This document shows, one piece after another, positions 3,210 through 36,721 of a stretch of DNA of 64,000 nucleotides. The stretch is taken from the NCBI GenBank assembly GCA_965216315.1, contig CBDCFN010000016.1, positions 704,001-768,000 of the forward strand, given 5' to 3'. The translations under genes were made by a program, and so were the position numbers. The stretch comes from a bacterium (lineage in GTDB: Bacteria > UBA10199 > 2-02-FULL-50-16 > JAJFLM01). The notes under the pieces are model-generated. The model did no database searches. It was not told where the DNA came from and saw nothing but the letters and a program-made list of their open reading frames with translations. How positions within the stretch are numbered: position 1 is the stretch's first letter; each line of letters begins with the position of its first letter.

Positions 3210-3236
3210 TCTTCGCAGGGGGTAGCTAAAAGTTGC
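3210..3236 (-). promoter_or_regulatory. sigma28/FliA-like promoter
   Basis: GCAA-N15-TGCGAAGA on the - strand, 60 nt upstream of the ATG at 3150. Same geometry as six other sites in the window. Confidence 0.5.
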
Positions 3237-3280
3237 CTCAAAAACCCTGTAATTGTTTGCGAATTTCTTCAAATGGGTCT

Positions 3281-3334
3281 GTAGGGGCGCCCCTTGGCGC
3301 GCCCAAGTGAGGGTGCAGCAAGCGGCACCCCTAC
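3281..3334. repeat. GTAG-family REP doublet (REPIN-like)
   Basis: GTAGGGGCGCCCCTTGGCGCGCCC...GGGTGCAGCAAGCGGCACCCCTAC: two inverted GTAG-headed hairpins just past the acs stop codon. Confidence 0.7.
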
Positions 3335-3338
3335 GGTA

Positions 3339-5312
3339 TTAAACAGCGCCCTGTAGCAGGTCTTGGACAACGCTCGGATCGGCCAAAGTCGTTATGTCAC
3401 CAAGGTTTTCCGTCTCGCCCTCGGCGATTTTGCGCAGGATGCGGCGCATGATCTTTCCTGAGCGCGTTTTGGGCAGGGCCGCCGCAAATTGGAGGCGATC
3501 CGGAGTGGCCGTGGGCCCAATCTCTTTCCTGACATGGGCGACGAGTTCTTTGCGCAAGGCTTCGGTATTATCGATGCCTTCCTTGAGGGTAACGTAGGCA
3601 TGGATGCCTTGGCCTTTCACTTCATGAGGAAAACCGACGACCGCGGATTCGGCGACGGCGTCGTGGGAGACGAGCGCGCTTTCGACTTCCGCCGTGCCGA
3701 TGCGATGTCCAGAGATGTTGAGGACATCGTCGATGCGTCCCATCAGCCAATAATCACCATCTTCGTCAATTCGGGCCCCGTCGCCGGTAAAGTACATACC
3801 GGGAAAACGACTGAAGTAAGCCTCTTTAAAGCGTTCATGCTGACCGTAAACCGTCCGCATGATACCGGGCCAAGGTTTCTTAATGATTAGATAGCCACCT
3901 TCGTTGGTTTGGCATTCACTGCCATCTTCGCGGATGATTGCAGGTTCCACGCCAAAAAAAGGTCGTGACGCCGAGCCCGGTTTCGTTGTCATCGCGCCGG
4001 GTAGCGGCGTAATGAGAATACCACCTGTTTCAGTCTGCCACCAAGTATCAACGATGGGGCACTGTTTGTTGCCAACCACTTCTTGATACCAGATCCAGGC
4101 CTCGGGATTGATCGGCTCTCCGACTGTGCCAAGTATCTTTAACGATGAAAGATCATGTTTGGTGACAGGTTCATCACCTTCGCGCATCAAGGCGCGTATC
4201 GCTGTCGGTGCCGTGTAAAAGGTGTTGACCTTATATTGTTCGACGATGGACCAAAAACGATCAGCAGCCGGGTAGGTCGGGATGCCTTCGAACATCACTG
4301 ATTGCGCCTGATTGCAGAGCGGCCCATAGACAATGTAACTATGTCCGGTGACCCAACCGATGTCTGCCGTGCACCAAAAGAGATCCTCCGGATGATAATC
4401 GAAGACGTATTTAAAGGTGGTCGCTGCATAGACCATGTAACCAGCGGTTGTATGCAGGACCCCCTTGGGCTTGCCGGTTGAGCCGGAGGTGTAAAGGATA
4501 AAGAGGGGGTCTTCGGCCTCCATGGGTTCGGCCGGGCACTCCGTTGAAGCGGTGGTGACCGTATCATGCCACCAGACATCGCGCCCGTTTTTCATGTTAA
4601 TAGCAGTTCCCGTGCGTTTGACGACGAGACATTTGTCTACCTCATGGCCTTGTTGCTGACACAGCTCAAGGGCCTGGTCACAGATGCCTTTTATGGGAAT
4701 CTCTTTGGCACCGCGATAACCGCCATCACTGGTGATCAAGTGAGAACAGCCGGCATCGAGGATGCGATCTTTGAGGGACTCGGCACTAAAGCCACCAAAG
4801 ACGACCGAGTGGACGGCCCCAATCCGCGCACAGGCGAGGAGCGTTATGGCCAGTTCGGGTATCATTGGCATGTAGATTGCGACGCGGTCGCCCTTGCTGA
4901 CCCCTAACTTTTTCAGGGCATTCGCGCACTGACAGGCCTGGGCGTGCAGTTCACCATAGGTGATGCGGCGCTCTTCACCGGGTTCGTTGCCGACCCATAG
5001 AAAGGCGAGGCGATCCGCGGCAGCGGGGAGGTGACGATCGAGGGCATTATAGCAGATATTGGTTTGCGCCCCCTCAAACCACTTGATTTCGATCTTGTCG
5101 TTCCACTCATAGGAACAAACCTGATCCCATTTTTTGAACCACGTAAAATCAGCGGCCAGCTCCGCCCAGAAGGCCTCGGGTTCCCGAATGGATCGGTCAT
5201 ATAGTTCTTGATAGTGTTGGGGTGAATTGACCCAGGCGCGCTTGCGGATAATCTCCGTCGGTGGAAAATGACGGCCTTCGTGACTCAATGACTCGATACT
5301 GTCGGAAGTCAT
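3339..5312 (-). CDS. acs: Acetyl-CoA synthetase (AMP-forming)
   Basis: [14 protein letters not shown]-binding motif, [10 protein letters not shown] and [12 protein letters not shown]. Start moved to MTSDSIES (5312) because the longer ORF overlaps the divergent gene. Confidence 0.97.
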
Positions 5313-5361
5313 TGCCAAGGGGAACCAAATCCGTTTAATTTTGTCAACGGAGGGTATTACG

Positions 5362-34409: not shown

Positions 34410-34471
34410 GATTGTCAGGTGCGGTCCATTAAAAAGACCTGAAATTTAGCAAACGATCCTGGAGGTGCGTA

Positions 34472-35308
34472 GTGGGTGACTTGAACCGGATTCGTATCGG
34501 TATCAGTGCGGATAGTCTCGTTGTATCTGGAGATGAGCAGACCGATATGGGGGGTGCCGTCGGTGCCAATCTGCAATTCGAAGTCGACGACGTGTTGATT
34601 GATATGACGGTCGCAGCGGAACTCTTAATGCCGCTGGCGGGTGGAAGTGGGACTTCCAATCTATCCTTTCATTTGGCCTTGTTGGGTGAGGTTGATCCCG
34701 ACATTTGGATTGGAGGTCAATCGGGCGTTACGTTTGATATGGAAGGTCTGGAGGATCTCGATGTCATTCCCACCGGCGAGATGGGGGCCCTCATGCTGGC
34801 CAATGTTGCGGATAACGTGGCGCTCAGTGTTTACGCGGGAGTTGCGACGAGTGATTTTCAGGAGGTGTCGTTTAAAGGCGCGGCCGGCATTCGTTTGTCG
34901 TGGGACCTTTATGATTCGAGTGACTTGCCCGTCGGTGCTGTAGCCGACCCCAATGAGCCGCGAGCGGAGCCGGCCAAGATTATCGGCTTTGATCTCATCG
35001 AGCCCGATCAGACGAACATGTTCGTGCTCGATCCGTTGACGCTGCAGATTGAAACGAGTGGTCCGGCCGACGTGGAAATCTACATCATCGATGATAATGG
35101 CGATCGCGTTTATGATCTCGGGACGCACAAAATCGATGGGGTGGAGGAACTCTCCTTTTTGCGGGGCAAGTTTTCTTTGTCACGGCGAGACCGAGAACTC
35201 AAAGGTGACGGCTATCGCGTCGTCGTTCGTGTCAAGGATGGGGATGGCCTGCAGTATGGGACTCAGCCGATTCGGATCTATAAGACCTATCGCAATAGAA
35301 GGCCTTAA
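34472..35308 (+). CDS. Hypothetical protein with beta-barrel-like N-domain and Ig-like C-domain
   Basis: GGAGG RBS and GTG start. Amphipathic beta strands ending GAAGIRLSWDLY, then a Pro-rich linker. Confidence 0.6.
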   Translation: MGDLNRIRIGISADSLVVSGDEQTDMGGAVGANLQFEVDDVLIDMTVAAELLMPLAGGSGTSNLSFHLALLGEVDPDIWIGGQSGVTFDMEGLEDLDVIPTGEMGALMLANVADNVALSVYAGVATSDFQEVSFKGAAGIRLSWDLYDSSDLPVGAVADPNEPRAEPAKIIGFDLIEPDQTNMFVLDPLTLQIETSGPADVEIYIIDDNGDRVYDLGTHKIDGVEELSFLRGKFSLSRRDRELKGDGYRVVVRVKDGDGLQYGTQPIRIYKTYRNRRP

Positions 35309-35340
35309 TCGTTGTTGGATGGATTTCTTAGGTAAACGAT

Positions 35341-36597
35341 TTACCGGTATCTATGGATGGTTTTAGGTTTAATGACCTTCCTCGGCAGTTCTTTTAACGT
35401 GCCATAGGGGCGATGATCGCAGGTGACCCGCCGGATGACGTGATTGGCGGTATCGGCAATGTAGAGAGTTCCATCACCGGCGACCGCAACATCGCTCGGT
35501 CCATTTAACGTCGCTAAACTCGAGTAACCACCATCTCCCGAATAGCCTGGCTCGCCGGTGCCGGCAAGTGGACACATTTCGCTGCCATCTCGCTGGACCA
35601 CGAAAATTCGATTATTCTTGTAATCGGCAATATAAACGACTCCTCCGGTGTCGATCGCAATGCCTATAGGATAGTGCAATCGTTCATGTGTCGCCGGACC
35701 CCCATACGCCGAGGAACCTCGCACGCTGCCGGCGAAGATACTGGCAATGCCAGCTGTGCTGACCCTGTGGATCAAGCCATTATCAGCGCTGGCGATGAAG
35801 ACATTTCCCTCCCTATCAACGGCTACATCATTCCAACTGCTTGCTAGCCCCGTTGTGCCAGCTACTGTGCTCATGTAACCGTTATTGTTGACCTTCCGAA
35901 TTCCCCTCTCAGCCATAAAGAGTGTCCCACCATCATTGATGGCTAGACCATCTGCGCCGTACAAAGGGACCTCTGTAGCCGGGCCATCAGTTGACGGCAG
36001 GGTTGAAACGCTAGGTTTGCCGGCAAAAGTACTTGCGATGCCCTCCGTGTCGACCTTAATAATTCTGCATTCACGGCTTTCCGCGTAATGACAGTTATCA
36101 GTGAAGTAAATATTACCGGCTCCATCGACCGTTACGGCCGTAGGATTAACCACGCGTGTCTCCGTGGCTTGAAGCCCATTCTGCCCATAGGAATCTAGCC
36201 TGGGATTGCCGGCCACGGTGGAAATAGTGCCAGCCAAGTCGACCTTTCGAACGCGTTTATTTCCAGAGTCAGCGATATATAGTTCTCCGGCAGGGCCGAT
36301 GCCCACGCCGCTAGGTACGTATAATTGGGCCTGGATTGCTGGCACTCCGTCTCTGAAAAAGCCGGGCTCACCGCTACCTGCAACCGTACTGATCCGGCAA
36401 CCCCACTGTTCGACGAGTGCTTGGCACTTGGGCGTGATGAATCGCTTATCGATTGAAAGACTCGTCTCAATCTTTGAGTCAGGTGCGTAGAATTTTTCTG
36501 CAGCTGAGACAGGAGTGAGGAAGGTATTGCCTGTAGAGAGAGCTAATAAAAGAACAAAAAGGAGAATAAGCGACTTCCGTTTGCCGTCAATGCTCAT
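35341..36597 (-). CDS. Secreted NHL-repeat beta-propeller protein
   Basis: Signal-like N-terminus and repeated P.GVA.D..G.LYIAD..N..IR and ISTVAG.G..G..GDGG motifs. Confidence 0.9.
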   Translation of the reverse strand: MSIDGKRKSLILLFVLLLALSTGNTFLTPVSAAEKFYAPDSKIETSLSIDKRFITPKCQALVEQWGCRISTVAGSGEPGFFRDGVPAIQAQLYVPSGVGIGPAGELYIADSGNKRVRKVDLAGTISTVAGNPRLDSYGQNGLQATETRVVNPTAVTVDGAGNIYFTDNCHYAESRECRIIKVDTEGIASTFAGKPSVSTLPSTDGPATEVPLYGADGLAINDGGTLFMAERGIRKVNNNGYMSTVAGTTGLASSWNDVAVDREGNVFIASADNGLIHRVSTAGIASIFAGSVRGSSAYGGPATHERLHYPIGIAIDTGGVVYIADYKNNRIFVVQRDGSEMCPLAGTGEPGYSGDGGYSSLATLNGPSDVAVAGDGTLYIADTANHVIRRVTCDHRPYGTLKELPRKVIKPKTIHRYR

Positions 36598-36694
36598 AGT
36601 TGAATGATAACTTAAGGCAGGGCTAAACTGTAGCAATAATAGACCTACCGAAAATTCCTTTGCATTTCAGTCGCTTAAACCATTATTATTTAAC

Positions 36695-36721
36695 GCAACC
36701 CTCCCGCATAGGGATCGATAA
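36695..36721 (+). promoter_or_regulatory. sigma28/FliA-like promoter
   Basis: GCAA-N15-ATCGATAA upstream of 36757. Confidence 0.55.

Follow-up and report, generated by a model that had tools for sequence, protein, structure and literature searches.

A recurrent AAC/CGA motif upstream of lineage-restricted genes as a probable alternative-sigma promoter class in a bacterium of the UBA10199 lineage

In a 64,000-nt stretch of DNA from a bacterium of the UBA10199 lineage (GenBank assembly GCA_965216315.1, contig CBDCFN010000016.1, positions 704,001 to 768,000; hereafter 'the window', GC ∼52%, 46 proteins), seven genes are preceded by a recurrent motif of two short blocks, AAC-N16/17-CGA[AT][AG]A. 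To judge from the sequence, these genes, ∼15% of those in the window and all of them lineage-restricted, are most likely driven by a conserved class of promoters for an alternative sigma factor. We put the probability that the sites are promoters for one alternative factor of the sigma-70 family (group 3 or 4) at about 0.78.

A two-block motif upstream of seven genes

The initial annotation of this DNA had listed seven strings as sigma28/FliA-like promoters, and all seven occur where it placed them. The consensus over the sites is c-R-C-A-A-C-T-T, 11-13 bases, N-N-C-G-A-(T/a)-(A/g)-A, and the refined pattern given above is a tighter coding-strand form that the sites have in common. The distance from AAC to CGA is 15-17 nt, both blocks always lie on the coding strand, and the second block, a hexamer, is found about 10-62 nt 5' of the start codons of monocistronic-looking genes.

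The first site, GCAAC-N16-CGAAGA at 3210..3236 on the minus strand, has its hexamer 59 nt before the ATG at 3150. The other sites are on the plus strand. ACAAC-N16-CGATAA at 6258..6284 is followed by the ATG at 6294, which begins 9 nt past the hexamer in a leaderless-type arrangement, and the same distance separates TCAAC-N16-CGATGA at 12858..12884 from the ATG at 12894. At the third locus, the motif is GAAAC-N17-CGATGA at 7520..7547, with the hexamer 24 nt before the TTG at 7572 and a GGGAGGG Shine-Dalgarno sequence between them. The string listed earlier for this locus, TCAAG-N16-CGAATA at 7488..7514, is a weak variant (AAG, CGAATA) that falls outside the top 20 matrix matches; the site at 7520..7547 fits the pattern better. 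GCAAC-N16-CGAAGA at 9702..9728 begins right at the end of the stop codon of the previous gene, and its hexamer is 47 nt before the ATG at 9776. The last two sites are AAAAC-N17-CGATAA at 34382..34409, with the hexamer 62 nt before the GTG at 34472, and GCAAC-N16-CGATAA at 36695..36721, with the hexamer 35 nt before the ATG at 36757.

In three cases, one of them in a related locus described below (L002), the start codon is found 9, 9 and 10 nt past the hexamer (6294, 12894 and L002:179). No GGAGG-like Shine-Dalgarno sequence lies between the hexamer and the ATG at 6294 or 12894, in agreement with the earlier observation of two sites with an ATG exactly 9 nt past the -10 element and no such sequence; at L002:179, the spacer has a G-rich AGGGGG directly 5' of the ATG. 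The start at 12894 is the first possible one of its frame, and the N-terminus of a homologue (P0018) agrees with it. GGAG-type Shine-Dalgarno sequences were read at 3150, 7572, 9776 and 34472, and a weaker GGGAG at 36757. A terminator-like hairpin at 7465-7478 lies at the end of the gene at 6294..7484.

Enrichment in the window and conservation in two related loci

The refined pattern has 17 matches in the window. Seven of them fall between genes, are oriented with the coding strand and have the C of CGA at a distance of 15-68 nt from a start codon. The remaining 10 all lie inside open reading frames (ORFs); one intragenic match (CGA at 5366) is inside an OsmC-like gene. Over the 46 upstream stretches of 100 nt, taken in gene orientation (4500 nt in all), we found seven matches compared to 0.18 expected from dinucleotide shuffles (none of 2000 shuffles reached seven, and the maximum was three) or 0.36 expected from the background rate of the window, although the pattern was shaped on the same sites and these figures are therefore overstated. 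The other 39 genes have no match within 100 nt upstream. The initial annotation had proposed comparison with shuffled DNA as a test that could refute the motif, and had noted its recurrence before odd genes, with no copy noticed before housekeeping genes in a look that was not exhaustive. With a pattern fitted to the same sites, the excess over shuffled DNA was found, and the recurrence was likewise seen, in seven of the 46 genes. A loose form of the motif, CAA-N17-CGAWRA (W, A or T; R, A or G), has nine matches on both strands (4.1 expected), a number that was equalled in 2 of 100 shuffles.

Since the refined pattern was fitted to its own sites, independent evidence was needed. The 1120-aa protein encoded at 36757..40119 has ten relatives at 42-51% identity, and an alignment of these was used to retrieve two loci in metagenome-assembled genomes (MAGs) from among species-representative genomes: L001 (contig CAZWYB010000007.1, 57% GC) and L002 (DASUFF010000106.1, 60% GC), which come to 37.5 kb together. 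Indeed, the site at 36695..36721 is kept before the orthologues in both. CACAAC-N15-CGATAA (CGA at 9968) precedes the L001 orthologue (L001:9995-13222), with the hexamer 21 nt before the ATG, and GGCAAC-N15-CGATAA (CGA at 1081) precedes the L002 orthologue (L002:1114-4353), whose GTG lies 27 nt past the hexamer. The orthologues share ∼50% protein identity, and the rest of their upstream spacers cannot be aligned. In both relatives the orthologue lies between purB and pyrG-rpoN-ptsN-hprK-rapZ, a synteny that the window does not have. Another site in L002, CACAAC-N16-CGAAAA, has its hexamer 10 nt from the ATG of L002:179, which encodes a 293-aa protein of no family; we compared this protein with the 278-aa product of 34472..35308, and the two are not homologous. 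The motif is not found before purB, purL, pyrG, rpoN, hprK, rapZ, ptsI or metK in L001 and L002.

A two-block weight matrix built from either set of sites puts those of the other set first. A matrix made from the three sites of the relatives only ranks the window sites at 6279, 34404, 3215 and 36716 as the top four of 128,000 positions, with the site at 6258..6284 the best match (23.9) and that at 34382..34409 the second best. A matrix made from the seven window sites only ranks the three sites of the relatives as the top three of 75,054 positions, although these cross-genome tests are only partly independent, as a regular expression taken from the window had served to find the sites of the relatives in the first place. 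With a matrix of all sites, the highest score in the window (25.1) belongs to the site at 3210..3236, and the leave-one-out ranks of the seven sites, in the order of their coordinates, are 5, 7, 6, 10, 27, 7 and 7. Positions outside the selecting pattern agree as well: in the 10 sites (seven in the window and three in the relatives), C precedes AAC in eight and T follows it in six to seven, a flanking preference that is common to the intergenic sites and not to the intragenic matches. We consider conservation across genomes to be the strongest evidence for the motif, which we regard as real and functional.

A number of observations weigh against reading these sites as promoters of one factor, in addition to the fitting of the pattern and the partial dependence of the cross-genome tests. 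The significance of the enrichment varies with the pattern chosen, and the loose form with a spacing of N18 has seven matches compared to 3.8 expected. Unbiased scans of the window were able to pick out known signals, namely the sigma54 element and the Shine-Dalgarno sequence, but the hexamer most enriched in the spacers was TGGCAC, the sigma54 element, and not the motif, and in a trinucleotide-dyad scan of 25 upstream spacers CAA-N17-CGA came only about 22nd of ∼49,000 (uncorrected P = 3.8e-4). The site at 12858..12884 is the weakest of the seven, with its leave-one-out rank of 27 of 128,000 positions, and it overlaps a sigma70-like TTAAAA-N18-TATGAT at 12847-12876. The conservation rests on two related loci, and L002 has an extra match (CGA at 8082) 75 nt before ptsN. 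This match sits in the 3' end of the upstream ORF, presumed to be hpf, and has no counterpart at the homologous place in L001; it is probably a chance false positive, and the pattern thus does yield them. Finally, there is no sigma factor gene among the 46 proteins of the window, and the single gene for a sigma factor of the extracytoplasmic function (ECF) type seen in the scan of L001 and L002 (L001:923-1456) has no motif upstream. It belongs to a group at L001:923-3803 that also encodes a 254-aa protein of no family, possibly an anti-sigma factor, and a caspase-domain protein.

Other promoter classes are found in the window. Seven sites of the sigma54 type TGGCAC-N5-TTGC (21418-21432, 22730-22744, 27342-27356 on the minus strand, 27579-27593, 42011-42025, 57575-57589 and 60497-60511) compare with 0.16 expected, and all are intergenic. 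Five of the six on the plus strand precede genes for proteins with a signal peptide or lipobox (21511, 22785, 42069, 57642 and 60602), the sixth precedes the gene for a 2245-aa protein at 27623, and the one on the minus strand points at 25933-27243 (-). No gene has both a sigma54-type site and the AAC/CGA motif. In the window, the suf operon and rpmB have sigma70-like TTGACA/TATAAT boxes upstream, as do rpoN and ptsN in the relatives, where rpoN has a textbook TTGACA-N17-TAGAAT. A sigma70-like match is found in only one of the seven motif-bearing spacers, that at 12847-12876. The other promoter classes lie on other genes, and we therefore think that the motif marks a third class, one of an alternative sigma factor.

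The genes behind the motif and their surroundings

The genes that follow the motif appear to be lineage-restricted and not housekeeping genes. The first, 1..3150 (-), is cut by the edge of the window and encodes a protein of 1050 aa or more, for which Pfam, NCBIfam, PADLOC and the PDB gave no match. The second, 6294..7484 (+), encodes a 396-aa protein with an FGE-sulfatase domain and an N-terminal extension of ∼95 aa. The third, 7572..9701 (+), encodes a 709-aa protein in which a central threonine-dehydratase-like domain, dependent on pyridoxal phosphate (PLP), is flanked by N- and C-terminal extensions. A search of 5.8 billion clusters gave only four relatives of this protein, at 38-55% identity, and the N-terminus of one homologue (P0002) agrees with the TTG start at 7572; a search of contigs of species-representative genomes with this fusion of a PALP-family domain found no relative. 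The fourth gene, 9776..11878 (+), encodes a divergent malic-enzyme-like protein of 700 aa.

The fifth gene, 12894..15233 (+), encodes a 779-aa protein whose family is rare (31 clusters at E ≤0.001 in a search of 1.84 billion representatives) and has a conserved HExxH; its own N-terminus is lipoprotein-like (…LTVAGAC). The AlphaFold model is all-alpha and confident (mean predicted local distance difference test score, pLDDT, 86.8; predicted template-modelling score, pTM, 0.84), with residues 1-45 predicted to be disordered, and a fold search of the PDB with this model found no match below E = 0.2. The protein may have a new zincin-like fold. Sub-threshold matches in a protein atlas relate it to hypothetical proteins and to families of zinc-metalloprotease effectors (0.82-0.83). 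Most relatives of this protein begin with a short N-terminal Cys-Pro-(Leu/Ile) motif and have no signal peptide.

The sixth gene, 34472..35308 (+), encodes the acidic 278-aa protein, which has no family and no PDB match. The seventh, 36757..40119 (+), encodes the 1120-aa protein, in which a metallophosphoesterase centre like that of purple acid phosphatases and PhoD is combined with a predicted C-terminal eight-stranded beta-barrel. Its model is of moderate confidence (pLDDT 67); the centre resembles purple acid phosphatases and PhoD (matches at E from 3.5e-4), while the eight strands in the last ∼130 residues give weak matches to the N-domain of OprF (E 0.04) and to soluble lipocalin-like barrels. 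The long N-terminal part is helical, conserved from residue 2 and predicted to be folded, with no signal peptide. In the same atlas the protein has a sub-threshold match of 0.79 to metallophosphatases.

Pairwise BLAST comparison of the seven products gave nothing below E = 0.5. None of eight proteins (the seven products and that of L002:179) matches a defence-system model in PADLOC, sequence searches of the PDB with four queries gave nothing meaningful, and Rfam at gathering thresholds found no known leader RNA in the 5' regions of the window. The GC content of the motif genes is slightly raised (0.534 versus 0.51, P = 0.014), but GC at third codon positions is alike (0.548 versus 0.555 for the 33 genes of neither promoter class), and we therefore see no sign of a foreign origin.

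Several further features were noted in the surroundings. The gene at 17600-21313 (-) encodes a 1237-aa fusion of a Ser/Thr protein kinase with TPR, GAF and sigma54-interaction AAA+ domains and a Fis-type helix-turn-helix, a candidate activator of the neighbouring sigma54 promoters. The 2245-aa ORF at 27623-34360 (+) matches no family in Pfam or NCBIfam and, read from the called TTG, begins without an evident signal peptide, and the 379-nt AT-rich spacer upstream of it has sigma54 sites on both strands. An AT-rich spacer of 467 nt at 22318-22784 contains a pair of hairpins and a sigma54 site. Another, of 608 nt at 43464-44071 before the Rrf2-suf operon, contains palindromic TATA-rich repeats, a TTGACA-N17-TATTGG and a terminator-like hairpin 3' of 42069-43463; no Rfam family matches either spacer. 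The acetyl-CoA synthetase ORF at 3339-5459 (-) (706 aa, TTG at 5459) overlaps the OsmC-like gene at 5341-5769 (+), and the start of acs probably lies ∼50 codons further in than the longest ORF call.

Two genes behind sigma54 promoters, 57642-60257 and 60602-62080, encode thrombospondin-type-3-repeat proteins with a likeness, below the cut-off for the family, to the MYXO-CTERM cohesion protein MtsC, and a gene for an OmpA-family protein follows at 62275-63576. The tRNA-Gly (CCC) gene at 63626-63699 is the only Rfam or ARAGORN match in the window. The sigma54 promoters, the fusion of kinase and sigma54 activator, and the thrombospondin-3/MtsC-like and OmpA proteins hint at a 'deltaproteobacteria-like' flavour. 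The SufB protein of the window is 81-88% identical, to a like degree, to proteins from MAGs, from Acidobacteriota, from 'Deltaproteobacteria bacterium PRO3' and from Bdellovibrionota, and gives no placement. The contig that holds the window is 2.4 Mb long and is absent from the collection of species-representative genomes.

Candidate sigma factors, export and known systems

An arrangement of two asymmetric blocks, separated by 16 ± 1 nt, on the coding strand near start codons and free of dyad symmetry, argues for -35/-10 recognition by a factor of the sigma-70 family. GCAAC (about -34 to -30) would be the target of its region 4 and CGAWRA (about -13 to -8) that of region 2, and transcription, to go by published geometry, would start ∼8 nt past the hexamer. 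The mRNAs at 6294, 12894 and L002:179 would then be effectively leaderless, with leaders of 2-3 nt, and those at the remaining sites would have leaders of 14-55 nt with a Shine-Dalgarno sequence. A stage-specific or stress-specific programme would fit a lineage-restricted regulon whose products have no hydrophobic Sec leaders. The regulon looks large, to go by seven of 46 genes here and an unrelated orphan gene in a relative.

Geometry alone cannot separate the sigma28 and ECF classes. The two halves of the motif were compared to each. An ECF-like factor is the candidate that we favour, at a little under even odds; a diverged orthologue of FliA/sigma28 is a less likely reader, and another group 3 factor takes the rest. 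The -10 half has CGA in 10 of 10 sites and CGATAA in five, with CGAAGA, CGATGA and CGAAAA as the variants, and the W-R-A tail in all 10 is in part a result of selection. The -35 half is (G/A/T)(C/A)AAC in all 10 sites (AAC by selection), mostly GCAAC or ACAAC, followed by T-rich sequence. The enteric FliA consensus is TAAAGTTT-N11-GCCGATAA. Four copies of GCCGATAA are present in the window, none of them upstream of a gene; TAAA-N15-NNCGA has 10 matches in the window, of which none is in an upstream region, and neither TAAA-N14-16-NNCGAT nor the Bdellovibrio form TTAAG-N16-CCGATA is found upstream of any gene in the window. Neither a TAAA or TAAAG -35 nor the GC extension of the sigma28 -10 element is seen in any of the 10 sites. 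Thus, as far as the letters of the motif go, the likeness to sigma28 is confined to the -10 half, and the label FliA-like that these sites had been given is half right: the CGATAA-like -10 resembles that of sigma28, while the -35 is of another kind.

A true FliA/sigma28 orthologue with a diverged -35 specificity, acting as a global stage regulator as in Bdellovibrio and with no export implied, is in our view less probable than an ECF-like factor. It would account for the -10 half, in which W-R-A is conserved after CGA and an A occupies the position of the -11 base that sigma28 promoters flip out, according to PMC12784957. In the promoter geometry given there, the C of CGA is at -13, GCCGATAA spans -15 to -8 and the -35 block covers -36 to -30, as in fliC of Pseudomonas aeruginosa with (-36)TCTAAAG(-30) and (-15)GCCGATAA(-8). 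The -35 element of sigma28 does differ between species, from TCTAAAG in Pseudomonas (PMC12784957) to TTAAG in Bdellovibrio, where TTAAG-N16-CCGATA is the FliA promoter (PMC3627812). The same paper attributes 92 of 140 attack-phase promoters, many of them non-flagellar, to Bdellovibrio FliA, and the density of seven promoters per 64 kb in the window is comparable to or above that of this regulon (PMC3627812). Against an orthologue of FliA, however, the -35 half is not TAAA and the -10 is not extended by GC at any of the 10 sites, and GCAAC followed by T-rich sequence is a classical ECF -35 (PMC6767563). An ECF -10 element of CGAA has been described as well (PMC3511200). Moreover, the check for flagellar genes proposed in the initial annotation gave none: fliA, flgM and genes of the flagellum or of a type III secretion system (T3SS) are absent from the 46 proteins of the window and the 27 proteins scanned in L001 and L002, so that neither the window nor the related loci give a FliA or flagellar context.

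The reading originally proposed goes further, in that FliA/sigma28 promoters would mark effectors exported by a Sec-independent route, for example a flagellar or other type III system, from a predatory or host-associated bacterium. We think this improbable. In its favour are the CGA of 10 of 10 sites and CGATAA of five, a spacing that fits TAAA-N15-GCCGATAA, and precedents both in the FliA regulon of Bdellovibrio (PMC3627812) and in Campylobacter, which exports non-flagellar proteins through its flagellar T3SS according to PMC2764114 and PMC5223770. The departures from the sigma28 promoter count against it in full, with no TAAA or TAAAG and no GC extension in 10 sites and no canonical FliA pattern upstream, as does the lack of flagellar, T3SS, fliA or flgM genes in the 64 kb of the window and the 37.5 kb of the relatives.

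The products themselves also divide on the question of export. That most of them have no Sec leader, as had been suggested, was borne out by a crude measure of hydropathy only: the peak 12-residue Kyte-Doolittle mean in the first 56 residues is 0.59-1.86 in the seven products, below 2.0 in all seven, and none reaches the values of the clear signal peptides in the window (2.6-2.8 in five of six sigma54-class proteins, four of which have a lipobox). Disorder is predicted for the 45 N-terminal residues of the 779-aa protein, a point in favour of export, but with its lipobox-like AGAC this protein resembles a Sec or lipoprotein substrate. The purple acid phosphatase/PhoD/acid sphingomyelinase fold is usually extracytoplasmic, and the barrel of the 1120-aa protein is weakly OprF-like; however, the barrel fits soluble lipocalin-like folds equally well, and the N-terminus of this family is conserved and folded and not a variable leader. 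Three of the products are enzyme-like and belong to families that are normally cytoplasmic (PLP-dependent dehydratase-like, malic-enzyme-like and FGE-sulfatase-like).

Three candidate targeting signals were also tried and rejected. On visual inspection, a likeness was seen between the N-terminal sequence of the 6294 product (…LSLQQFGQAALVSG…) and those of the PALP-family relatives P0003-P0005 (…LFALAQQFGLASTLLS…), but a profile made from the latter and run against 400 ORFs of the window and the loci placed the 6294 product at rank 4 with E = 2.4, and a shared leader was rejected. A twin-arginine translocation (Tat) signal in the 1120-aa protein (…TPVRRL…) was set aside, as relatives have QR or RH in place of the twin arginine and a folded structure is predicted for the segment, and a likeness to encapsulin cargo peptides was dropped, as Pfam scans of the 46 window proteins found no encapsulin-like shell family. 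Export of the products is speculation. We consider it improbable that a hybrid promoter, with a -35 of the ECF type and a -10 of the sigma28 type, drives perhaps 100-200 genes for lineage-restricted proteins, among them the phosphatase-like protein with its barrel, the HExxH protein and the enzymes with long extensions, and that these are delivered by a Sec-independent route in a predatory or host-associated stage. If this were true, the motif would serve to find effectors directly, in the way that the hrp box did for Pseudomonas syringae.

Least likely of all is that the blocks are an operator of a DNA-binding regulator or a chance likeness among a few GC-poor spacers: the unbiased scans of the window are not significant, 10 of 17 matches are intragenic and at least one probable false positive occurs in L002, but a pair of asymmetric coding-strand blocks that lacks dyad symmetry and keeps a spacing of 16 ± 1 nt is atypical of dimeric operators, the start codon lies 9-10 nt past the second block in three cases, and an accident would hardly give conservation in three genomes and top ranks across them.

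A promoter for an alternative sigma factor would be of use in several ways. Promoter classes are almost unknown for uncultured lineages, and the motif gives a handle for annotation, as it cleanly separates ∼15% of the local genes, lineage-restricted orphans, from the sigma54 and sigma70 classes. Knowledge of the regulon across the whole genome would lead to its sigma factor and allow proteins of unknown function to be sorted by shared regulation, and if the products are exported the motif would also predict effectors. The mixture of an ECF-like -35 and a sigma28-like -10, together with three leaderless-type arrangements, is relevant to the question of how group 3 and group 4 factors came to differ in specificity. 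Full-text searches of the literature turned up no account of a GCAAC…CGATAA promoter class, which is weak evidence, given that one of them returned unspecific papers.

Compared to known systems, the motif shares features with three. Like FliA/sigma28 promoters, it has a -10 element with a CGA core, followed by TAA in five of 10 sites, and the same distance between the blocks, and, as in the Bdellovibrio FliA set, many non-flagellar and uncharacterised genes carry it. It differs from them in its -35 of GCAAC or ACAAC instead of TAAA(G), in the lack of GC before CGA, in looser positions 4-6 of the -10 element and in its setting, which is free of flagellar genes in the window and the related loci.

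Regulons of ECF factors tend to be small and to contain the gene of the factor. Like ECF promoters, the motif has AAC in the -35, followed by T/C-rich sequence, and a -10 that opens with CG 16-17 nt from AAC; CG is found in 10 of 10 sites, 15-17 nt after AAC. Similar arrangements are GCAAC/GGAAC-N17-CGTCTT for sigmaE of Streptomyces coelicolor (PMC6767563, Table 1), CGTC at -13 to -10 after tGTTAC-N16 for RpoE1 of T. tengcongensis (PMC3397946) and GTAACC-N16-CGAA for sigmaF of Caulobacter (PMC3511200), the last a documented CGAA -10. Unlike most ECF -10 elements, which have CGT, the third base of the motif is always A and not T, and W-R-A is conserved after it as in sigma28 promoters.

The third comparison is with the hrp box read by HrpL, the ECF sigma factor of plant-pathogenic Pseudomonas and Erwinia, which marks T3SS genes and effectors. 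The -10 of the hrp box is of the CCAC type and the box adjoins a T3SS cluster, of which none is visible here. The hrp box and the motif are alike in that a promoter of an alternative sigma factor, with AAC in its -35, marks dispersed, lineage-specific proteins without Sec signals.

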